Of a DNA stretch of 64,000 bases, positions 15,842-64,000 are shown piece after piece. Under the pieces are notes generated by a model. The model made no database searches and was not told the DNA's origin. It worked only from the letters and a program-made list of their open reading frames with translations. Position 1 is the stretch's first letter; the number at the start of each line of letters is the position of its first letter. The DNA lies in NCBI RefSeq assembly GCF_022045235.1, contig NW_027266341.1, positions 33,356,001 through 33,420,000 on the forward strand. The letters run 5' to 3'. The DNA comes from Haliotis cracherodii. Lineage: Eukaryota. The position numbers and the translations under genes were made by a program.

Positions 15842-16110
15842 GACCCATGAAGATCCGGGGTAGAATAGGTCTTCAGCAACCCATACTTGCCGTTAAAGGT
15901 GATTATGCTTGTCGTAAGAGGCAACTAACGGGATTGGGTGGTCTGGCTCGCTGACTTGGTTGATGCATGTCATCATATCCCAATTGCGTGAATCGATGCT
16001 CATGAAGTCAATCACTGGATTGTCTGGTTCAGATTTGATTGTTTACAGACCGCCGTCATATAGCTGGAATATTGCTGAGTGTGGCGATAAACATCAAACA
16101 AGCAAACAAG
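15842..16110 (+). mobile_element. SINE-like family C (no tRNA head, (AAAC)n tail), full-length copy
   Basis: gacccatgaagatccggggtagaataggtcttcagcaacccat...gctggaatattgctgagtgtggcg..aaac. More than ten related copies or fragments in the window. Confidence 0.85.
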
Positions 16111-18360: not shown

Positions 18361-18470
18361 TGCATTAAGGTGGATAGTTAGCGAGTTACATAATATGCAG
18401 ACATATGATACTCTACAGAATGACTTCAACACCATGACTGATTTATTATAGAAATATGAAAGATCTGTTT

Positions 18471-18628
18471 ACTTATCCTGCATTACTCCATAATGCATTC
18501 ACTGCTTAAGGAGTAATGCAGGATAAGTATACAAATAATAAAAATATCTGGACATTACTGGATTTTTTAACTTATCCTGCATTACTCCTTAAAGCAGCGA
18601 ATGCATTAAGGAGTAATGCAGGATAAGT
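18471..18628. repeat. Pair of ~58-bp hairpins with mutually reverse-complementary loops
   Basis: The stem acttatcctgcattactcc/ggagtaatgcaggataagt occurs at 18471-18528 and again at 18570-18628. Confidence 0.9.
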
Positions 18629-19099
18629 ATAAAAATATCTAGATTGTACTAGTATTGGTTGTTCGGTAACTTGTGGGTAGTATATGCTGCACTAGATTAC
18701 TTCCGAATTATTTCAAGAGGTTTTTTTACAGACAACTGTGTGATACCACCCAAGGTTTGACACAGCTTTGATGAATAAGGAGTTTTCCCCAACTGACCCT
18801 GTAGCTCGACGTAGGCACCACAAATTCAAATGCCCCCTTTTTGATGAGAATGGGGCTAGTTGCCTCTTTAATTCCGTGGTAAGCAGGATGTGAGATGTTC
18901 AGGTATAAAGCGGAGTAATTACCTCACAGGTAAGTGAAAATGGTGGGGGGGGGGGGGGGGGTGCGGGGGTTTGGCGAACAGGCAGGGCTAATGACCTCAT
19001 TCAAAAAATAGAGGGGTATCACATACGTGTGCCATCTATGAAAGATTTAAGTACTTGAGGTTAATTATTGTTGAGTAGATGTTTGAGTAGTAACATGGG

Positions 19100-24942: not shown

Positions 24943-25062
24943 GTAACAAATGTTATATTTGGGATAACACTTTCTTAGTAAAGTACAGATTCTCTTACCA
25001 AAAAACGTAAGAAAATCTGTACTTTACTTAGAAAGTTTTATCCCAAATATAACATTTGTTAC
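24943..25062. repeat. 120-bp hairpin
   Basis: gtaacaaatgttatatttgggataa..agtaaagtacagatt / aatctgtactttact..ttatcccaaatataacatttgttac. Confidence 0.85.
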
Positions 25063-31780: not shown

Positions 31781-32786
31781 ATAGATTTATACTATTTCCA
31801 TGAAATTACTTGTTAAAGTACCATTGTTGGCAAACTAATAGACTGACATGCGACAAGTTTATGTTTGTTTGGGTGTGATCTGACAGATTGAACCATCCAT
31901 ACCAATTTTAGTTAAATCTAATGACCGTCACTACAAGTCTGACCTCCTCCTGTAAAGAAACAAGTGTAGGAAATATGTATTGCAAACTGTTGTAGAAATG
32001 AAACTTGTATGAAAGAAGAATTAAATGTAGCATTATCTGCCTCCAGGTGTTTCAAGTATTTGTTGATGTTATTCTCAAAATCTTGTTTGTGACCTTCCTT
32101 GTCTGAACAATAGTAGGAAGATATTGAGGTCGTTATGTTTGTGAATTAAGACTACCTCCACTGTCTGCGACATCAGCTACTAATACGAAGCCTGAGGCTA
32201 GAAAAATTCTGATCATCGAGTTAACTCTGCTAGTAATTTTATATAGTCTATTATAAATAACAACCTGAAAAGCTACAGAGAATTATTCTTACAGCTGAGT
32301 TCGGGCAAGTGGACTCCGAGGTATTTTGTACAGACTGCCTCCATTTCACATCAGTATGAAATCTTGTATTGTCAATTTTCAGCCTGATATAAGTACCTTA
32401 ACATAGAAATACGCCAATTCCACCATTTGGATGTTTGGATTTGCTGCCAACGGTATGCTTGACGTCTTGATAAAAACCTCCTCTTCAATAAACACAACTC
32501 CATGGGGAGCAAGAAACATCTCCCATAATCTTGTCTTGGAATGTTTAGTTATGGCGAATATTCTCTTTAGATTCGTGAATGTGACAGGGATCTTATCCTT
32601 GCCATGCAACATTATAGTAAACAACTTACGACTTTCTTCAACATCCAGTGTTAATTGTTCCATTATGCAACATATCTGTTGATTCTGTAAATTTGTGTGA
32701 TGTCTGTTTGCCATGTTTGAGATAATAGATGGACATAGAAAATGGATAAAATGCTTGTTTGATCATAAGGACAAAATCTTGATACT

Positions 32787-32990
32787 GTTTGTTTGTTGTT
32801 TAACGCTGCACTCAGCAATATTCCAGCTATATGACAGCAGTCTGTAAATAATCGAGTCTAGACCAGACAAACCAGTGATCAACATCATGAGCATCGATCC
32901 ACGCAATTGGGATACGATGACATGCATCAACCAAGTCAGCGAGTCTGAACACCCGATCCCGTTAGTCGCCTCTTACGGCAAGCATTGGTG
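32787..32990 (-). mobile_element. SINE-like family C, 5'-truncated copy
   Basis: Tail and body match the family C consensus. Confidence 0.8.
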
Positions 32991-38354: not shown

Positions 38355-38620
38355 ATGTGATCCGGGATAGAATAGGTCTTCAGCAACCCATGCTTGGCGT
38401 AAAAGGCGACTCTGCTTGTCCTAAGAGGCGACTAATGGGATCGGGTGGTCAGGCTCGCTGACTTGGTTGATGCATGCCATCGTATCCCTGTTGTGTGGAT
38501 CCATGCTCATGATGTCAATCACTGGATTGTCTGGTCCAGACTCGATTATTTACTGACTGACGTCATGTAGCTGGAATATTGCTGAGTGTGGCTTTAAACA
38601 ACAAACAAACAAAACAAAAC
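38355..38620 (+). mobile_element. SINE-like family C copy
   Basis: gatccgggatagaataggtcttcagcaaccc...aaacaacaaacaaac. Confidence 0.85.
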
Positions 38621-44484: not shown

Positions 44485-44565
44485 TTGGAATCTTTCTTCA
44501 TTCTTCCCCCTCATGAGCGAAAGTTTGTACCTCGGGAAAGACAAAGACTACAGACAATGTTAGCT
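44485..44565 (+). CDS. MICU3: Candidate alternative MICU3 exon: LESFFILPPHERKFVPRERQRLQTMLA
   Basis: Strong pyrimidine tract tctttcatctctttcttttcag|, donor |gtacgt, 81 bp, phase 0-0, no stop. It begins LExxF like the next exon. Confidence 0.5.
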
Positions 44566-44957
44566 GTACGTCTCCCTAGTCACTACTGTTCCCAGAATCA
44601 CAACACGCAATCTAGGTCACATTTATCACGGTCTGGGTCCTAAACCTTCATTAAGGAAAATTATTACAAGCCACTAATATTCTTAATATGAATTCCCTAA
44701 TGTAAAAGAAGACAGGAATCATTAAATGTGATTATATGAATCACAATAATAATTGATCCTTGATATTATTATCCCTTCTTATGTAATAAGTAATTGAAAC
44801 CCTGGTAATTGTATATATATAAAGTTCTAATGAGTCTTGTTGAACTTTGATGTACAGAGCTAAACAAGATTTCCTTCACCATCAGCTCTCAGGGCTAGAC
44901 TAGAGTCCTGCAGCGTCAGGGTTCATGTAGACTTTTTTGTTAATTAGTGTCACCCAG

Positions 44958-50739: not shown

Positions 50740-50831
50740 GCAGTGGAGACGAGAATACAGGACACGTCTCTGATGATCCACTTCTTTGGCAAGTATGGAA
50801 AGGACGTCCTCAAGTATGACGACTTTCACAG
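50740..50831 (+). CDS. MICU3: MICU3-like exon: AVETRIQDTSLMIHFFGKYGKDVLKYDDFH(R)
   Basis: gtgtag| and |gtaagc, 92 bp, phase 0-2. Contains the MICU-family DTxLxxHFFGxxG motif. Confidence 0.93.
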
Positions 50832-51216
50832 GTAAGCCAGACGCACAGGGGTGCTGTGAAAATATCCTACTGAAAACAAGTTAAGGAACACTCACAATTG
50901 GAAGTCAGTGTGTTGCAGCATCCAGCAGCCATGAGAGATTAACTGCTGTCATATAAAAAAAAAATCATGCGTTCTTTAACTTCTTTTAAGTAGTATAGAA
51001 TTGTGAGTCAACTCCCAGGCATATCGGCCCTTCTGTGATACATGGATTTAAGAACAGAATGGGACTTTACAGGAGACATGTTGCTGGATGTTGCGGATTA
51101 ATCTGTGACCATGTCAGCCACATCGGGGTTGGGGGACGGGCGTTCATGGGCAGAATGTGAGTTTGTCACATACTTCTGTCAACCCATGGAATAACATGGC
51201 ATCTTGTGTTGACCAG

Positions 51217-51394
51217 ATTCATGGAGAACCTGCAGAGTGAGGTGATTGAGCTGGAGTTCCTGGAGTTCTCCAAGGGCATGAACACGATCTCTGAGGTGGA
51301 CTTCGCCCACATCCTCCTCCGCTACACCCTGCTTGACCGCGCCGAGATTGACGAGTGCATTGCCAGGGTCAAGGACAGGATTCAGCAAGAGAAG
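51217..51394 (+). CDS. MICU3: MICU3-like exon: FMENLQSEVIELEFLEFSKGMNTISEVDFAHILLRYTLLDRAEIDECIARVKDRIQQEK
   Basis: gaccag| and |gtaact, 178 bp, phase 2-0. Matches MICU3 FMDNLQTEVLEIEF...GMNTISEEDFAHILLRYT. Confidence 0.95.
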
Positions 51395-51813
51395 GTAACT
51401 TTGTCAGATGCTGGATAAAAATGGGGTTATTGTCTCCTAGAGACACTGAAACAAAAATTTCCAAACATTTTGAAGTCTACTTTAGCAAGTGCACATTTTT
51501 TCAGTTTTTTGGAAGAACTTCTCAGGGCTCATGTCTATTATTTCAAGAGACAATTAAACAATAAGAATCCTCAAATGTATACTTATTTGAGAGATTAAGT
51601 GTTAGTCAAGAAGTTATCTTGCAAACACATTCGCTTTCAGTATTGCACTGCACAGCCTTTGACAGGGAAACTTTTCTTGGCCCATAAGTCCAAATTGAGA
51701 TTTATCAGTTTTGTGTTTTATGAAAGTTTTGCATGTTGATGAACATGGCAGTGTTTTTGCTGTTTAATCTGATTGGCATTGCCAGCTATTCTGAGACTTT
51801 GTGGACATTTCAG

Positions 51814-51922
51814 GGCATTACTTTCCAAGAGTTCAAGAAGTTCTGTCAGTTCTTGAACAACCTGGATGATTTCTCGATCGCCATGAAGATGTATACCTAT
51901 GCCCAACAGCCTGTCTCCCAAG
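51814..51922 (+). CDS. MICU3: MICU3-like exon: GITFQEFKKFCQFLNNLDDFSIAMKMYTYAQQPVSQ
   Basis: tttcag| and |gtatgt, 109 bp, phase 0-1. Contains the MICU motif GITFxEFxxFxQFLNNLxDF. Confidence 0.95.
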
Positions 51923-52259
51923 GTATGTTATTCACACTGCGGAGTTGCAGCCCTTAGTTGTACAAGGATGTACTGGTCGTTGGTTGGATTCCCAGACACA
52001 TTCCATGATGATTCTGGGCCTGTAGATGCATGCTTGATGGATGTTTGACAAATTGGTGAAATCCAAAACACACAGAGTTGATTATATACAGACTGATGTG
52101 AGATTAAAAGGATTGGCAAGCACAGTACTGTTAAGCTTGAATTTAATTTGTTTTCAATAATAAAATGCATTTGTTGTATGGTTCTTCCTACTGAGGCTTT
52201 GTAGGCGAGTACATGGTTAATGATTGGTGTTTGAGCACATCTTGGCATGTGTGTTTCAG

Positions 52260-52417
52260 ATGAGTTCCAGAGGGCAGTGAGGGTATGTACGGGCTTCACG
52301 CTGGGCAAGGACGTTGTCAACACTGTGTTCCAGATCTTTGATTCCGACGGTGATGGTCACCTCAGCTCCCCGGAGTTCATCGCCATCATGAAGGACAGGT
52401 TACACCGAGGTTCCAGG
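52260..52417 (+). CDS. MICU3: MICU3-like exon with EF-hand 4: (D)EFQRAVRVCTGFTLGKDVVNTVFQIFDSDGDGHLSSPEFIAIMKDRLHRGSR
   Basis: tttcag| and |gtcagt, 158 bp, phase 1-0. Canonical EF loop DSDGDGHLSSPE plus the MICU2/3 signature IMKDRLHRG. Confidence 0.95.
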
Positions 52418-52934
52418 GTCAGTAGAGTCGGACCAGTAGCCACACCAGTAACCACACAACTAGTCACACCAGTAGCCACACAAAACATCACATCACACAG
52501 CGTCTTCTTGCTTGTTTCGGTAAACGTTGAAACAATGCATGCTCCAGCATAATTTTCAATCAATACTCAATGTTGTTGACACAATGTTGTGGTATGACTG
52601 AAATACTCTTCAAAATTTGGTAAAATCCATTCCTGGAATATAGATGTGATATTGCCATTAGAGTGGACAGCCCGAATAATTATGTACTGTAAATCTGAAA
52701 AGTTTTGCAAAAACAGCGGGTGACAAACATTCACAATAGTTTCATGACAGTTACCTCTTTGCAGACCAACGAAGACGTAAGGAGACATATTATATTAGTC
52801 ACTCCCACTCATTGTCAAACCAGCCAGTATATGATTGAATTAATATACCCTCACATCCGGTTTCCTTAATTACATATTGTCACACAATGTATAATCAAGA
52901 AAGTTCATTTACCTGCAAAATCTTGTCAAGTTAT

Positions 52935-53214
52935 GGGGCACGGATGGCCCCGTCGTCTTAGGTGCCACGATGCGCTGTCCAGAGTTCGCCCCTTTGGCAC
53001 GCCAGAAATCTATGATTTGTGGGTTCGAATCCTGGTTCGCCTCGATTATGTTTCTAGGTTTGTCAGCACCATACCCGTGCTCGTGGGTTTCACCGAAGTG
53101 GTAAACGTCTGAGACCTACATCACTTCTGGCTTTCCTCCCACATTAAGCTGACACTCTCTGTGATATAACTAGAATACTTTTAAAAGCGGTGTTAAACCC
53201 AACTCACTCACTTA
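52935..53214 (+). mobile_element. SINE family A copy
   Basis: Full head-to-tail match. Perfect 11-bp TSD cttgtcaagtt at 52922-52932 and 53215-53225. Confidence 0.88.
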
Positions 53215-53456
53215 CTTGTCAAGTTGCTAACATACCACTGACTAGTCAAGACATACACCGGCCATGAGTATTGTTACCACCAAACTCCTCCAACCTCCCT
53301 GCTAACTACGATAACACATGCATCTGTAGTTAAAGAATCACTGACACTGTCAACTTTACACCACACTGCTTCTTATGCTTACAAAAAGAAATAGCTTTGA
53401 TCTTTGGTAATCCTGTCAACAGGCTGTTGCAAACTGTCCAGATGTAGTGAAGGCTA

Positions 53457-53551
53457 CACAGGAACTTGTTATTGGTCAGTAAATAAAAATATATACCCCC
53501 CCCCCCCAGGGGTATATATTTTTATTTACTGACCAGTAACGAGTTCCTGTG
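53457..53551. repeat. 95-bp hairpin (about 42-bp arms, poly-C loop)
   Basis: cacaggaacttgttattggtcagtaaataaaaatatatacccc / ggggtatatatttttatttactgaccagtaacgagttcctgtg. Confidence 0.85.
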
Positions 53552-53711
53552 GAAAGCTATTGGTCACTCGCACTAATTTCATGGCACCAATGTTTCCAGA
53601 ATGACAGTAATTAGTTTGCCTGGCCTAGATGTGATCGTTTACAGAACACTTGGATACAGCTGGAATATTTATGACTGCTGCGTGACAGATGCACACGCGC
53701 TGTTTCATTGG

Positions 53712-54012
53712 GCCACTTCCGTGATCTCATGGATAGAGCGGAAGGTCGGTGGTTCGATCTCCTTGCTGCATCATTCCGATGGATGTTAAAAGATGGTACT
53801 TGTTGTTGCCCTGATTGGTACTTGGCATAAAGGGGCTAAAACAAGGACAGGTCGTCCCAGGGCTGTATACTATGTCTGAGTCAGGTATCCATGTTAAACT
53901 GCATCATATCTCAGCAGCCAGTTTGATGGTCCGTCTGGACTAGTACACACAGCCACACACATATCACTCTATCAATGAATGCAGTGTTAAACCCCATTCC
54001 ACCTCACCTCAT
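53712..54012 (+). mobile_element. SINE family D copy with Meta-domain-like central motif
   Basis: GGTTCGATCT B box, then gatgttaaaagatggtacttgttgttgccctg, which resembles the MetaSINE central domain as I recall it. Tail is aaaccccattccacctcacctc. Confidence 0.65.
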
Positions 54013-54093
54013 TTTGATGTGGTTTGCCAGTCGCATACTTGATTATTTAAAGGCAGCTATCGTAAAACTCATCCCTGTTTTTCTACTCGACAG

Positions 54094-54168
54094 TCTCATC
54101 TGATGCACACACAGGGGAACTGGGAAGCCTTCCGGCAGTGTATCCGCAATGAGATGAAGAGCAACTAG
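54094..54168 (+). CDS. MICU3: MICU3-like terminal coding exon: SHLMHTQGNWEAFRQCIRNEMKSN*
   Basis: Pyrimidine tract then gacag|, phase 0, TAG at 54166-54168. Encodes the C-terminal FxxCxxxE helix with the Cys that MICU proteins use for disulfide-linked dimers. Confidence 0.88.
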   Translation, partial: SHLMHTQGNWEAFRQCIRNEMKSN

Positions 54169-56136
54169 CTCCCACCTCCATCTCCATATATCTACAATGA
54201 GTGTCTGCACATCCACTTTCTCACAACTCTCCTCATGTCTGCATGTGATGAAGTGCAGGCATCTGCTCGTTTGTTTCAAGTGACAACTCCCACAGGTGAT
54301 GGAGGCTGTTCCTTAAACATGGCTCCTCTCTTAACAGTAAACATACAGGATAATATTGAAATGAAGGAATACAAACATTGCCGCCACCGAACTGGTCAAG
54401 ATAGTACAACTGGTTATTTGTTCAAAAGTCTGGAGTCATGTTTGGTGCCAGTTACCTCCCTTTACATGCAGCAAGGAGTCGTCTCCCTTGACTTTCGATG
54501 ATGAAATGATGGCATCTTCAAGAGAGACATACAAACAAAAGGAGGACAATGCTGTTTTTCTGACTGTGCCACACTTCACCTAATTATTAAACACAATAGC
54601 CAAAGTCTTCATGAGCTATTAAAAGTAGATCTTTCAAATATTAAATACTGCCAAAAATATCCCAGCCAACTAGAAGAGGTTACAATTTGTAATAAACCAG
54701 TAATGATTTATGATATTTTAGACACATTTGAATAGTAATGAAATATATACTACTCAAGTTTTCTTAGGGTTCTGATATATTTAATCTGTTTCAAATCTCA
54801 GGACAATAATGCCAGAATAGATTGCTTGTGTGGCGTTAGCAAATAATCTCTCCACAGACGACTATGTCAGTTGCTTACATGGCAATATGGAATACTATTC
54901 TCCATCAACCGCCATGTAACATCCCTATCAAAAGATGTGTTGTATATTTGACATCATGGACAGTCTGGTGATTCACTGGCCATCACAGTAACTCCCTGGC
55001 ACATCTTTTCTTGTATGGAATAATATTTCCAGCACAGATATGATACAATCTTTTGTGAATTAACCTTTTATAAAGATAGATGAGAATCTTCCAATAATTA
55101 TGCACAAATTTACTTAAATAACATGCACGTTTGTCATTTTTCCCAAGTCCTTCCATCATATCTTGAATGTTTTTTTCTCAAATTACTCTTGTTTCGCTTT
55201 AAGATCTGTTTGTTATCTTGTTGATGGGGTTACTCCACTCGTGCGGTAACCACTTAGGACACTGTGATACAGGGAGCAATCTGTGTACATACTGTTTGAG
55301 TGAGTGAAGGTGCCTGTCAGACTTTACAGTGATTCTGTTTGTTGAATGAATTTGTTATGTTATACAAATCAACATTTCATGATTGGATGGTTGATAACTG
55401 ACTTAAAGATTAGGAATCAGCTTCAGAATGGTGACAAAATTTGATACATCTTTCCCATCAATTTGTGATATAAAATATGCTTGCTTGACAATATTTGATC
55501 AGTGATGTACATATTATTTTTATATCTCAGTCAGGGGACACTTTATGGGTTGAAATTCAAATTTATTTAAGTGTTATCAAGCTATCCTTCATGATAGGTT
55601 TATGTGTTAACACAAGTACCTAATTGTACCACATGATGTCCCGTAATTGAGTGCTTGAAGGGGGCCTGTTTTCTTCCTGTTTGTATGTTGAGTGTGTGAA
55701 CTGTCCAAGTCCTGAGGATAAATGTTAACTTATAACATGTGTTCTGTTCTCCTCCTTGTGGAAAAACACAACATCAGAATGGCCAACTTGAATTCATCCT
55801 TGATTAATCATGTGTTATAGCCATCGTTTCAGCAGGTAGATATTCTTCATAATGACCCCACACGTGCAGCACCAGGGTTCCGTTCTGCATCATCACTTCT
55901 ATTTCTGACTTAACAAAGAATTTATTTGATTGAATGGGTGTTTTTAGTAGTGCCATTTGAATTGAGCTCAAGACGAGGCTATGGTAGTGATTAGGTCATC
56001 GGTGTTCATGATACCCTGGATTATCAAGGATGATTTAATGTGAATTTCTCCAGAAATGCACGAGCAATTAAGTTCATTCTGATGTTTTGTTTCTCTGCTA
56101 AGGAAAGCTTATTTTTGTACAGAAATTTTATGAAAT

Positions 56137-56170
56137 ATTAAACAAAATGATATCCTAGTGTTTGGTTATT
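56137..56170 (+). terminator. Probable poly(A) signal (ATTAAA) and downstream GT-rich element of MICU3, implying a ~2-kb 3'UTR
   Basis: ATTAAA at 56137-56142 followed by tagtgtttggttatt. The interval 54169-56170 is free of the repeats that fill the introns. Confidence 0.4.
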
Positions 56171-56940
56171 ATTCACTTTCACTCACTGGTCCAGACTTAA
56201 GCATTTGTTTGCTTGGCGGTGCTCAAGCCATATGAAAGCAGTGTGTACCGGTATATTATCAAGCCTGGACCAGACAATCTAGTGATTGACATCACAATCA
56301 TCAATCATCAATGTACAATTGGGAAACAATAACACATGATGGTGAGTGAGCCTGACCACCCTTATGGCAGCAGGAAATATTTAAATCATGTAGGACAAAC
56401 TTTGGTTGCTTGGGACTAATATTCTTACCTGAAATCCCCATTGATATAAAGTATGCATGGCTCATCTACTGTACTGACTCTACCACCTGTAGAACACAAG
56501 GTGACTAAAGTGTGGATACACTTTCAGAAACAAAACAACCCTGCAAACAGAATGGCCCTCTCCAAGTTCCTGAAACTGGAGGCCAAACAATTGATTGAAA
56601 GCTGCTTGAAATACAAAGGTGTAACTTAATTGTTATCATGGGTTTTGAGAAAATATGTGTAGTAGCACCTAGTTGTCGGGGTTGTTAACACACAACAAAC
56701 GGCTACAGGGTGTGAGCTGATGGCTGTTTATTCTCTCAGAAGAGAAAGGTGAATAAATACAGCCTGCAACAATGTATAAATAATAAGACATACTGCATAC
56801 AAGACATAGAACATTGACATTGTTATAATATACATAATGGCCTTACATCTAATGGACATTCAATTATATGCACTTAAAATAGCAAGAAACCAATGTTACT
56901 CATGTAGGAAGTAACCTGCACAATGATATATATATTATAT

Positions 56941-57956
56941 TTTATCATATAATGGGTAGGTTTCTCGGCAGGATAAAGCCAACGGATGAAAACGATATCC
57001 GTTGGGGTCATATGCGGATAGAGATGCAAATATCAAATGTCAAGTAGGGACTACTTTCACTGTTTATAAACAAACATGGCGTCGCCCTTGTCATTCGGCG
57101 ATCGAGTCAGAATTAACCATCGTGAATCTGGATAAACAACAGGGATAATTGCTATCATTATCAAAAGAACAGTCTAATATACTGAAAATCTGTGTCTAAC
57201 TGTAACGTAGCTAAGGCATTTTATAAGTTTTGGCAACTTTGGAGATATAAATTTCGAAGCAATTTGGCGAGGGCACGTGGCCTAGCCAAGCGGGATCAGT
57301 AGCCATATCTGTGCTTGTAGACCTCTGCGGCTTGAAACCTCCTCCACAAATTAAAATAGTTGGATTTGGCGGAAATATGTTTGAATTGTTACCTTGTTTC
57401 GTTTTATCGCTGTGTGTACATCTGACTACACTTCTTATCGTTATGACAGGACAGACCGACTTTCAACGTCTGACCGTGGCCGTGACGTCTCATAGACTAG
57501 GGTTAGAGTAGCTTCCCTTTGACAAAGGGCAGTTACTCTAGCGGACAGACCGATGGATTGCCGCGAAAGGCAATTAAAAACAATTGTTGTTTTGCGTATA
57601 TGTTGCTTCGCCACTGTATAAGAAACAGATTTCAGTTGGAACTATATTGGCTACTGTCACTGTCCGACTGACATATCACTTACCCTGTGACGTAATAAAT
57701 ATTAATGCGCGCATTCCAGGAAAACTCGCAATGTTTCGGTAATGTTTGTGAGTGAGGGAAAGCGATTTTGAAGCACAGAATTAAAGAATGACATTATATG
57801 ATAAAGAGGTTATCACGCTTGTGTGTTTGGGGATGGTAAATATCCTGTATTAGGAATAAACACTATGTATTTAGCTTGCCAAGGCTCGCTAAATACAATG
57901 TTTATTCCTAATGCAGGATATTTACCATCCCCAAACACACTCGCGTGATAACCTCT
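56941..57956 (+). mobile_element. 1016-bp non-autonomous DNA element, copy A (14-bp asymmetric inverted repeat plus ~150-bp terminal hairpin)
   Basis: tttatcatataatg (56941-56954) pairs with cattatatgataaa (57792-57805), followed by a hairpin at 57805-57956 centred on gcttgccaaggctcgc. Near-identical copies follow. Confidence 0.85.
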
Positions 57957-58087
57957 ATGTATCTATATATATGCTGACGACGAATATCTTTGTAATTATC
58001 ATGTAGTATTGTACTTGTCTAGTGTTATGACAGTAGACATGGTTTATGTTTAGTTTAAACTGATTATAGGGTTATAAGCAGATATAT

Positions 58088-59103
58088 AGAGGTTATCACG
58101 CTTGTGTGTTTGGGGATGGTAAATATCCTGCATTAGGAATAAACATTGTATTTAGCGAGCCTTGGCGAGCTAAATACATAGTGTTTATTCCTAATACAGG
58201 ATATTTACCATCCCCAAACACACAAGCGTGATAACCTCTTTATCATATAATGTCATTCTTTAATTCTGTGCTTCAAAATCGCTTTCCCTCACTCACAAAC
58301 ATTACCGAAACATTGCGAGTTTTCCTGGAATGCGCGCATTACTATTTATTACGTCACAGGGTAAGTGATATGTCAGTCGGACAGTGACAGTAGCCAATAT
58401 AGATCCAACTGAAATCTGTTTCTTATACAGTGGCGAAGCAACATATACGCAAAACAACAATTGTTTTTAATTGCCTTTCGCGGCAATCCATCGGTCTGTC
58501 CGCTAGAGTAACTGCCCTTTGTCAAAGGGAAGCTACTCTAACCCTAGTCTATGAGACGTCACGGCCACGGTCAGACGTTGAAAGTCGGTCTGTCCTGTCA
58601 TAACGATAAGAAGTGTAGTCAGATGTACACACAGCGACAAAACGAAACAAGGTAACAATTCAAACATATTTCCGCCAAATCCAACTATTTTAATTTGTGG
58701 AGGAGGTTTCAAGCCGCAGAGGTCTACAAGCACAGATATGGCTACTGATCCCGCTTGGCTAGGCCACGTGCCCTCGCCAAATTGCTTCGAAATTTATATC
58801 TCCAAAGTTGCCAAAACTTATAAAATGCCTTAGCTACGTTACAGTTAGACACAGATTTTCAGTATATTAGACTGTTCTTTTGATAATGATAGCAATCATC
58901 CCTGTTGTTTATCCAGATTCACGATGGTTAATTCTGACTCGATCGCCGAATGACAAGGGCGACGCCATGTTTGTTTATAAACAGTGAAAGTAGTCCCTAC
59001 TTGACCTTTGATATTTGCATCTCTATCCGCATATGACCCCAACGGATATCGTTTTTATCCGTTGGCTTTATCCTGCCGAGAAACCTACCCATTATATGAT
59101 AAA
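58088..59103 (-). mobile_element. Same element, copy B (inverted, tail-to-tail with A)
   Basis: Reverse complement of A with about nine substitutions counted by eye. Confidence 0.85.
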
Positions 59104-59577
59104 TACATTTATACATTCATGAATAACACATAAACAATACATACCAGATTGGTGAAACTGTGCCGTTTTACCAAGGCTTCGAAGATTGTACCAGTTAATC
59201 TGCATTGACAAAGTATAAACTAATGCAGATACTATTTACACTATAATTATACACAACACATAAGTAAAATAGGTATTTAAAATAAGGATTGATCAAATTA
59301 CTTAAATAATGCACTTTCACACATACGCATACATTCTTATGCACAATTAACACTATGTATTTAGCTTGCCAAGGCTCGCTAAATACAATGTTTATTCCTA
59401 ATGCAGGATATTTACCATCCCCAAACACACTCGCGTGATAACCTCTATGTATCTATATATATGCTGACGACGAATATCTTTGTAATTATCATGTAGTATT
59501 GTACTTGTCTAGTGTTATGACAGTAGACATGGTTTATGTTTAGTTTAAACTGATTATAGGGTTATAAGCAGATATAT

Positions 59578-60593
59578 AGAGGTTATCACGCTTGTGTGTT
59601 TGGGGATGGTAAATATCCTGCATTAGGAATAAACATTGTATTTAGCGAGCCTTGGCGAGCTAAATACATAGTGTTTATTCCTAATACAGGATATTTACCA
59701 TCCCCAAACACACAAGCGTGATAACCTCTTTATCATATAATGTCATTCTTTAATTCTGTGCTTCAAAATCGCTTTCCCTCACTCACAAACATTACCGAAA
59801 CATTGCGAGTTTTCCTGGAATGCGCGCATTAATATTTATTACGTCACAGGGTAAGTGATATGTCAGTCGGACAGTGACAGTAGCCAATATAGATCCAACT
59901 GAAATCTGTTTCTTATACAGTGGCGAAGCAACATATACGCAAAACAACAATTGTTTTTAATTGCCTTTCGCGGCAATCCATCGGTCTGTCCGCTAGAGTA
60001 ACTGCCCTTTGTCAAAGGGAAGCTACTCTAACCCTAGTCTATGAGACGTCACGGCCACGGTCAGACGTTGAAAGTCGGTCTGTCCTGTCATAACGATAAG
60101 AAGTGTAGTCAGATGTACACACAGCGACAAAACGAAACAAGGTAACAATTCAAACATATTTCCGCCAAATCCAACTATTTTAATTTGTGGAGGAGGTTTC
60201 AAGCCGCAGAGGTCTACAAGCACAGATATGGCTACTGATCCCGCTTGGCTAGGCCACGTGCCCTCGCCAAATTGCTTCGAAATTTATATCTCCAAAGTTG
60301 CCAAAACTTATAAAATGCCTTAGCTACGTTACAGTTAGACACAGATTTTCAGTATATTAGACTGTTCTTTTGATAATGATAGCAATCATCCCTGTTGTTT
60401 ATCCAGATTCACGATGGTTAATTCTGACTCGATCGCCGAATGACAAGGGCGACGCCATGTTTGTTTATAAACAGTGAAAGTAGTCCCTACTTGACCTTTG
60501 ATATTTGCATCTCTATCCGCATATGACCCCAACGGATATCGTTTTTATCCGTTGGCTTTATCCTGCCGAGAAACCTACCCATTATATGATAAA
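59578..60593 (-). mobile_element. Same element, copy C (inside the 1490-bp tandem duplication)
   Basis: Direct repeat of B at +1490 together with B's flanks. Confidence 0.85.
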
Positions 60594-60895
60594 TACATTT
60601 ATACATTCATGAATAACACATAAACAATACATACCAGATTGGTGAAACTGTGCCGTTTTACCAAGGCTTCGAAGATTGTACCAGTTAATCTGCATTGACA
60701 AAGTATAAACTAATGCAGATACTATTTACACTATAATTATACACAACACATAAGTAAAATAGGTATTTAAAATAAGGATTGATCAAATTACTTAAATAAT
60801 GCACTTTCACACATACGCATACATTCTTATGCACAATTAACACGATTACCTCAATGTGATATGAGGTATAGAATTACTACAGTTTATTTAGGGTT

Positions 60896-61088
60896 TAGTT
60901 TTATTTAGTTAATGTTTAAGTTAAGCTGATAATAGACTAGGATAAATTAGCTATTTATCAATTAAAGAAACTGCTTTATAATACTTTATCATAGTTTTAT
61001 TTAGTTAATGTTTAAGTTAAGCTGATAATAGCCTAGGATAAATTAGCTATTTATCAATTAAAGAAACTGTTTATAATACTTTATCATA
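60896..61088. repeat. 96-bp AT-rich tandem duplication
   Basis: tagttttatttagttaatgtttaagttaagctgataatag at 60896 and 60992. Confidence 0.9.
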
Positions 61089-63039: not shown

Positions 63040-64000
63040 ATGGCTTGGAGGTTATCAGAGGCGCTAAGATGGCGTATTTTGGGTATGCGTTCGACAGGCA
63101 TGACCTACAACAGCATAGGACGTCAACTGGGTTATTTCACCGTATAATCAGCAGACCGGCAGACCAATGCTGTACAGGATCTCCCACGGTCAGGAGGTCC
63201 TCGCATGATGTCAAGGCGTGGGGACATGGCCCTGCTTCGGCTTGTATGTCGTCAACCATTTGCAGCATCTCCTGTTCTGAAGCGCCTATGGTTACCCTAT
63301 AGACTGATGTCAACCAGAACTTGGAAGAAACGACTGAAATCGGTGGGAATGAAGTCCATGAGGGTAATCAAGGGTCCCTTCCTTTCGGTCATCGTCGGGG
63401 AGTTCGTTCAGCATGGCGTTTGGCCCGGAGACCTTGTATGGTTGGTTGTTGTTTGTTGTTTAACGCCGCACTCAGCATTATTCATGCTATATGACGGCGG
63501 TCTGAATCAAATCTGGACCAGACAATCCAGTGGTTGATGCCATGACCATCGATCCTAGCATTTGGGAAACGATGACATGCATCAACCAAGTCAGTGAGCT
63601 CGACGACCCGATCCCGTTAGTCGCCTCTGACGACGAGAAAGTCGCCTTGCATGGGTTGCTGAAGACCTATTCTACCCGGATCTTAAAGGGACGGAGAGCT
63701 TGGAATCTGAGGACTAGGCGAAGAGTCCACTGGTCCTATAAGTGCACGTTCCTGCTCCATGTCACGGAAGGCCGATGGGGGATTTAGAGGCATACAAATA
63801 TGGCCTACACACCAAGGAACATTAGACCTACGACGTCGTATGGTGGAGGTTCGGTAATGGTTTGGGGTTGTCTGTCACATGATTGTAAGCTGGATCTTGT
63901 CACAACCAGGGAAACCTCCATTCCCCTAACGTCCTGCAACCAGTTGTTGTGCCGCATTGCGACAACCATCCACTCACCACCCGACCTGTGTACATGGATG
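63040..64000 (+). pseudogene. Decayed Tc1-family DDE transposase (continues beyond the window)
   Basis: Successive fragments: MAWRLSEALRWRILGM..GMTYNSIGRQLG (HTH), DLPRSGGPR, second HTH (MSTRTWKKRLKSVG), VHWSYKCTF (decayed V.FSDES.F), GGGSVMVWGC, and VLQPVVVPH...YMD. Frameshifts, stops, a deletion and a SINE insertion disrupt it. Confidence 0.88.
63437..63691 (-). mobile_element. SINE-like family C copy inserted into the Tc1 transposase
   Basis: 11-bp TSD cggaga(c/g)cttg at 63426-63436 and 63692-63702. Confidence 0.88.

Follow-up and report, generated by a model that had tools for sequence, protein, structure and literature searches.

The window, by which we mean the whole 64,000-nucleotide stretch of DNA that was analysed, holds part of the abalone gene MICU3 and, behind it, three copies of a 1016-bp gene-less element. 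MICU3 exons span 33934-54165 on the plus strand, with an optional exon at 44485-44568 in a longer isoform, and the exon at 52259-52417 matches Haliotis MICU3 at 98-100% (top 11 of 120 listed matches). The last coding exon ends at 54165 and the elements begin approximately 2.8 kb behind the stop codon. The region 3287-46749 is very densely populated with minisatellites having periods of ~21, 26, 27, 31, 45, 51, 60, 62-64, 77, and 87 bp and higher-order periods of 434 and 466 bp, many of them with strong GC skew. A second very high-copy dispersed repeat of ~200 bp is present in both orientations at 56223-56361 and at about eight further places, examples being 15905-16107, 32786-32985, 38413-38618, and 63505-63637; our guess is that it is possibly a SINE. 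A decayed remnant of a Tc1/mariner transposase lies at 63148-63990, where the match to HTH_Tnp_Tc3_2 is weak (E 0.018, below the curated cut-off), and no homologue was found for a 45-aa frame at 56492-56626. The features discussed below are as follows.

50740-54165, plus strand: last coding exons of the host gene MICU3 (Haliotis)
56941-57956, plus strand: copy 1 of the 1016-bp element; each terminal T could be part of the element or of its target
56941-56954, plus strand: left-end 14-bp arm, complementary to 57792-57805
56979-57005, plus strand: small hairpin with a 9-bp stem near the left end, the 14-bp arm not being involved
57073-57081, plus strand: the 9-mer AACATGGCG, at a confirmed exact position
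57792-57818, plus strand: core of the internal mirror, in which the 14-bp repeat abuts the start of the hairpin arm, giving TGATAA-5 bp-TTATCA
57806-57955, plus strand: terminal hairpin of 150 nt with ~70-bp arms, reaching the last base of the element
57876-57887, plus strand: asymmetric 12-nt loop of that hairpin; in copies 2 and 3 the opposite strand of the loop has CGAG..CGAG
57957-58087, no strand: spacer of 131 bp, AT-rich, within moderately repeated host sequence
58088-59103, minus strand: copy 2, inverted, placed by sequence comparison
57864-59353, plus strand: duplication unit 1 of 1490 bp, comprising half the hairpin of copy 1, the spacer, copy 2, and 250 bp of flank
59345-59353, plus strand: duplication junction with 9-bp microhomology, 8 of 9 positions being shared with copy 1 at 57855-57863, within its left hairpin arm
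59354-60843, plus strand: duplication unit 2, head-to-tail, with one substitution relative to unit 1
59354-59446: half hairpin within duplication unit 2
59578-60593, minus strand: copy 3, within duplication unit 2

Much of the anatomy described by the sequence-only reading is borne out. The first two copies are inverted and aligned without gaps over 1016 bases with nine differences, in agreement with the ~99% identity and the 131-bp separation claimed, their hairpin ends face each other, and the flanks are TA-rich. The 14-bp inverted repeat linking the left end to a subterminal site is present, and an exact 14-mer at a fixed place has a chance probability of 2e-8. So is the ~150-bp hairpin with its asymmetric loop, which folds at -67.7 kcal/mol (z -21), with none of 200 shuffled sequences as stable. 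The loop strand of copies 2 and 3 could, we presume, form tandem sheared G.A pairs, which the folding program does not score; the computed folding energies of the two strands are nearly equal. The first 80 nt of the element have a folding z of -2.3. Comparison of the two ends confirms that the 1016-bp element has no symmetric terminal inverted repeats, and it also has no long direct repeats and no internal tandem array that we could find. The absence of a credible open reading frame likewise holds: the longest frame starting with ATG is 44 aa, none of the six frames (stops read as X) matches Pfam, Rfam gives no match across the 64-kb window, and a crude motif scan of the six frames of the window found no recombinase or Rep motif. 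We take AACATGGCG at 57073 to be a putative YY1-like motif, which is not diagnostic of an element class. A non-autonomous, dispersed, gene-less DNA element is supported.

The extent of the family was gauged from 21 listed sequencing runs, 17 of which contain the sequence wholly or in part; in 11 of the 21, under five organism labels, 50% or more of its words are present. Four runs, two of contigs (X1 and X7) and two of raw reads (X20 and X21), were aligned to 54700-58087, which covers the left flank, copy 1, and the spacer. Raw-read depth in the nine element bins, with both directions summed, is high and fairly even at 75-133 in X20 and 273-469 in X21, while the 13 bins covering 54700-56168 have 0-1.3, and the element depths are a floor, C>T and G>A changes being dominant and ~99% of the reads fitting only partly. 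Both raw-read runs are labelled whole-genome and we infer that they are likely of bisulfite type, such that they could show methylation of the element. Given the ~1.9 billion letters read, a genome larger than 1 Gb, and the depth floor, the family has a minimum of hundreds of copies and likely thousands; summed contig depth is not a copy number.

The borders of the element are sharp. Loose ends immediately before 56941 occur in all four runs (41, 85, 92, and 124 records, with agreement of ~0.4), and the flanking consensus ends in TA in each; on the right, the two contig runs each have loose ends past 57958 and past 57962 (41 and 53; 58 and 83), with a low-agreement flank consensus of TAT. Because the loose ends are sharp at both borders, the 1016-bp unit is a dispersed element residing in TA-rich sites. 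Contigs covering the flank differ from the window at 24 of 1980 bases for X1 and at 72 of 1572 for X7, from which organism A, the source of X1, would be the species of the window or one very close to it, and organism B, the source of X7, a sister species; the family is present in both. The description of the element as young is apt for the pair in the window but not for the family, which occurs in 11 of 21 runs under five organism labels, and to call it a recently active family is too strong, given its occurrence in several species and the 4183 of 9994 X1 records that align at only 90-95% identity (a count that includes the second repeat in the flank). No paper describing the abalone family is among those listed by full-text searches (Repbase, Dfam, and most subscription journals lying outside this scope), and it may already be named in a repeat library.

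The most distinctive property of the element, which the sequence-only reading missed, concerns its joined ends: when the right end is placed directly before the left end, the reverse complement of the combined sequence lies without a gap inside the element, in all three copies. In copy 1 this internal mirror matches 14 nt of the left end and 13 nt of the right end before the first mismatch, and in copies 2 and 3 it matches 14 nt and 42 nt, respectively. Within the 64 kb, the resulting arm-spacer-arm site, TGATAA-5 bp-TTATCA, is confined to the three copies. When a single strand of copy 2 is folded in full, the 14 bases at each terminus are predicted to pair with internal bases that adjoin one another, with a nick between the two ends, and this end pairing is predicted for both strands. 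The mirror has a single T at the junction, compared to a T at both ends of inserted copies, and we would therefore predict TA-repeat-like empty sites without TT. An end mimic is absent from the other four long hairpin arms tested in the window. Long hairpins with 31-56-bp arms, none with the mimic, lie at 18463-18636 (a duplicated hairpin pair), 24943-25062, and 53455-53553. The full-text searches mentioned above likewise listed no paper that describes such a mimic in Crypton-type DNA elements.

The spacer between copies 1 and 2 is AT-rich as claimed (28% GC), but it is not unique: its bin has a summed contig depth of 205 in X1 and 3381 in X7, compared to 6-16 and 48-76, respectively, in unique flank. 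Because the flanks of copy 1 on both sides (56621-56940 and 57957-58087) are moderately repeated in X1 and X7, the host site is likely inside another repeat, further copies of which would supply the empty site.

Nor are there only two copies. A third full copy (59578-60593, minus strand) and a half hairpin (59354-59446), overlooked by the sequence-only reading, are also present, both as parts of the second of two head-to-tail 1490-bp units, and copy 3 likely arose through a later, local, microhomology-mediated tandem duplication. The units differ at one base of 1490, where copy 3 has the state of copy 1. Such near-identity is also what an assembly artefact could produce, although we consider it unlikely that the duplication is one. 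The duplication has created a new 335-bp palindrome at 59345-59679. The window's own duplication begins about 12 bases before the hairpin loop, and 11 of 23 distinct within-element joints among the best-supported rows (15 of 347 and 12 of 147) land at 57874-57888, on the loop, one of them running backwards; palindromic arms, or contig breaks at palindromes, may bias joint calls towards the loop. Breakage or template switching provoked by the hairpin is the likely cause of this clustering. Differences between the window copies are evenly spread, and copies 1 and 3 differ by seven events with no over-long identical tract (P 0.83), such that gene conversion between the arms is unnecessary as an explanation. 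About 50 bp past the large duplication there is a 96-bp tandem duplication at 60896-61088 (two copies, 97%), which ends in a 10-nt match to the left end of the element at 61080.

The alleles of the window copies provide insight into how the pair arose. At position 57259 all three have G where the family has A (37953.8 of 37953.8 in X1 depth and 99.7% in X7), and at 57278 all three have T where the family has A (19782.6 of 19789.9 in X1 and 99.5% in X7), the window base accounting for at most 7.3 of the 19789.9; at 57462 all three have T, whereas G is the base in the loose-end consensus of both X1 and X7. Because the alleles common to the window copies are so rare elsewhere in the family, one of copies 1 and 2 is likely the daughter of the other, through a local hop in either direction that landed 131 bp away, and in the simplest reading the age of this hop is roughly comparable to that of allelic divergence. 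Alternatively, the shared rare alleles could be explained by a subfamily belonging to the window's own species, in keeping with the 1.2% by which organism A departs from the window in the flanks. Reinsertion of the element next to itself, which had been proposed from the sequence, is favoured both by the shared alleles and by one further neighbour pair in X7, about 44 bp apart; this pair is arranged head-to-tail, 57962 of one copy being separated by 37 letters from 56941 of the next (among 12 of 147 rows listed).

Two other origins of the palindrome are much less probable. Replication via the hairpin, also proposed earlier, fares poorly: the ends of each copy are complete, the flanks differ, the spacer is asymmetric, and the loop is unflipped, with the same orientation in 2 of 2 independent copies. 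A rolling-hairpin element with parvovirus-like ends, in which tail-to-tail dimers are replication products, could explain why a long terminal hairpin with an asymmetric loop is present and why the hairpin ends face each other, but it does not sit well with 131 bp of host sequence between the copies, with a hairpin at one element end only, or with loops in the same orientation in both of two independent copies; moreover, no strand-change joint is seen among the rows listed, and the other neighbour pair listed is head-to-tail. We regard it as hardly probable at all. An assembly or fold-back artefact giving rise to the inversion or to the third copy is very improbable too: no listed contig spans the palindrome locus, but a fold-back predicts arms that are identical, flank included, whereas these arms differ at nine positions, terminate at the true ends of the family, and are bordered by dissimilar flanks, with an asymmetric spacer between them. 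These points bear on the inversion and not on the tandem duplication. As such, the palindrome amounts to transposon clustering of an ordinary kind with a duplication added.

Assignment of the element to a class turns on its ends. The sequence-only reading favoured a Helentron, and a non-autonomous Helentron/Helitron2 mobilized by a rolling-circle Rep/helicase, with an unusually enlarged 3' hairpin, does share several properties with the abalone element when judged by criteria in the accessible parts of PMC3627910, PMC4067079, PMC11417382, PMC7492417, and PMC5148889. The asymmetric repeat of 14 bp is positioned at the 5' end with an offset of 0 (8-16 bp within 0-4 nt being the criterion), the 5' base is a T, the second repeat is immediately upstream of the 3' hairpin as in Helitron2, and copies 1 and 2 do not have the same number of T's at the left end, a variation also known from HINEs. 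As far as the accessible text of these sources goes, HINEs are abundant in molluscs (PMC7492417) and neighbouring insertions are reported (PMC5148889). However, three end features fail. A distance of 151 bp separates the 3' repeat from the end, compared with 20-30 or 38-60 bp in published elements, and ~70-bp hairpin arms reach the last base, instead of the expected palindrome of 5-10 bp located 8-35 bp inward. Beyond the right end, both in the two copies and in the loose ends of the family, there is a single T and then A, whereas at least two T's on each end and insertion into TT are expected. The 5' arm has no hairpin of its own, with the first 40 nt folding at -1.3 kcal/mol (z 0.08) and only a 6-bp partial partner ~25 nt downstream. 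The internal tandem array is missing as well, and a Helentron origin is thus unlikely.

A gene-less derivative of a DIRS-type retrotransposon, reduced to the internal complementary region and the ends and moved through RNA, would account for a mirror of both ends near the 3' end, as in DIRS, and six of the 21 runs, recorded or guessed to be RNA, hold parts of the stretch (shares of 0.19-0.38), which is not evidence of expression. The termini are not inverted repeats of each other, though, the mirror overlaps by 1 nt rather than forming a 3-nt NTT junction, and there is no remnant of gag, RT/RNase H, or recombinase, making this origin highly improbable. Cut-and-paste transposons commonly hop locally, and a miniature DDE element with lopsided ends and a TA duplication would fit this behaviour as well as the TA-element-TA arrangement of copy 2 and the loose ends of the family (left TA, right TAT). 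Against it, symmetric terminal repeats of the Tc1/mariner type are absent, copy 1 requires an extra T, and an exact end mimic has no role in cut-and-paste movement; we find this reading quite improbable.

The second guess of the sequence-only reading, a Crypton, fits better than its Helentron. We propose that the element is a non-autonomous, Crypton-like candidate moved by a tyrosine recombinase made elsewhere, to which we give a probability of roughly 0.55. The end mimic shares its geometry with the internal complementary region of DIRS, a group of tyrosine-recombinase elements, and this favours the proposal. Recombinase sites consist of inverted arms flanking a short spacer, and Cryptons have short terminal direct repeats of 4-6 bp (available text of PMC3212892) that resemble each other across copies (available text of PMC8969392). 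TRTA is present on both sides of both copies, with the R differing within each copy. Non-autonomous animal Cryptons of 353-709 bp occur in up to 705 copies, and a gastropod CryptonA, CryptonA-1_LG, is recorded (PMC3212892 supplement 1). On the other hand, Kojima and Jurka, in the part of PMC3212892 available, give animal Cryptons no terminal repeats, direct or inverted. No recombinase could be tied to the element ends, either by Pfam (none of six frames) or by the crude motif scan of the window, and there is no empty-site joint among the joint rows listed (15 of 347 and 12 of 147). In Repbase and Dfam, gene-less repeats with hairpin ends from fish, cnidarians, and insects carry Crypton labels, and the tie between the hairpin layout and Cryptons rests on such labels, which do not amount to evidence.

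The mirror suggests a route by which such an element might move. One strand would fold back on itself, the internal mirror holding its two ends side by side by base pairing with a nick between them; cleavage and ligation there would then yield a circle, in which the circle junction and the internal mirror would make up a double-stranded TGATAA-spacer-TTATCA site. A tyrosine recombinase acting in trans would integrate this site into TATRTA-like targets, often near the donor and with no true target duplication. Finally, the hairpin or long palindrome would stall replication; the template would then switch from 59353 to 57864, duplicating 1490 bp. The broader proposal, that animal Crypton-type transposons move as folded single strands with a hairpin and mirror splinting the ends into a recombinase site, is tentative and we hold it to be doubtful. 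The available text of a 2026 review (PMC13565253) describes the Crypton mechanism as lacking experimental demonstration, a double-stranded circle being assumed, and that of a preprint (bioRxiv 10.1101/2022.05.23.493040) notes that the rise in copy number of active Cryptons is not explained by simple excision.

Searches beyond the window gave one candidate relative. A blastn search of a phage collection with the element gave no match. Exact-pattern searches returned 44 loci (32 viral ones with a 17-mer, nine in prokaryote genomes, and three viral ones with a 19-mer) in which the far-end match is 5-9 nt and the hairpin partner 0-9 nt; the layout is absent from all of them and they were treated as chance. 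A metagenome locus on an animal-like contig (L001) contains the 24-nt core exactly, with a 9-nt far-end partner 337 nt upstream and a broken hairpin, these features lying at 752-775 and about 1100-1115. A far-end match of 9 nt is also seen in two of the 44 control loci, and the body alignment score of 70 is no better than the maximum of 73.5 in 100 shuffles. In the light of these controls the locus is no more than suggestive, and it may represent a related family. An adjacent exon presumably resembles carnitine palmitoyltransferase and gives no Pfam match.

The value of the locus lies in the end design rather than in the palindrome. An exact mimic in a very high-copy family makes a concrete prediction of the junction sequence and provides a small test substrate, and if the proposal is true, a family that hops within ~100 bp and builds rearranging kilobase palindromes would be a natural substrate for a first Crypton mechanism. 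Some mollusc repeats called Helentron-like from an asymmetric repeat plus hairpin alone may be misassigned, and the locus shows how hairpins could seed local rearrangements beside genes.

Among known systems, the folded single strands of integron attC and CTX phage attP create a double-stranded site for a tyrosine recombinase, although these are bacterial and the folded-strand step in abalone is inferred only. As far as the sources available to us describe them, DINE-1, HINE, Cg_HINE, and FoHeli resemble the abalone element in having a 12-16-bp asymmetric 5' repeat, a T as the 5' base, and a 3' hairpin behind the second repeat, and Helentron/Helitron2 elements differ from it in that the abalone hairpin is far longer and exactly terminal, with no right T-run and no tandem array. 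The DIRS elements are themselves tyrosine-recombinase elements in which the internal complementary region is essential, and DIRS-1 makes no target duplication and prefers to insert into its own copies (available text of PMC7192593 and PMC3266345); the same sources show in DIRS-1 an internal stretch near the 3' end that is complementary to both ends side by side, but the right end of the abalone element folds straight back on a 12-nt loop. The likeness to CryptonA-1N1_OL, CryptonI-1N1_RPro, CryptonA-1_LG, and Eulor5/6 is that all are gene-less, abundant, and sub-kilobase to 1 kb in size (PMC3212892, PMC5753468, in the parts available). From the same partial accounts, animal Cryptons also lack symmetric terminal repeats and a clear duplication, and Cryptons have a short AT-rich word on both sides, which in CryptonS is TATGG. 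Published arms are 11-13 bp with a spacer of 6-8 bp, and the abalone element has a shared arm of 6 bp and a spacer of 5 bp. Compared with the animal Cryptons as they are portrayed in the accessible text of PMC3212892 and PMC5753468, the abalone element stands apart in having both a terminal hairpin and an internal mimic of its joined ends.
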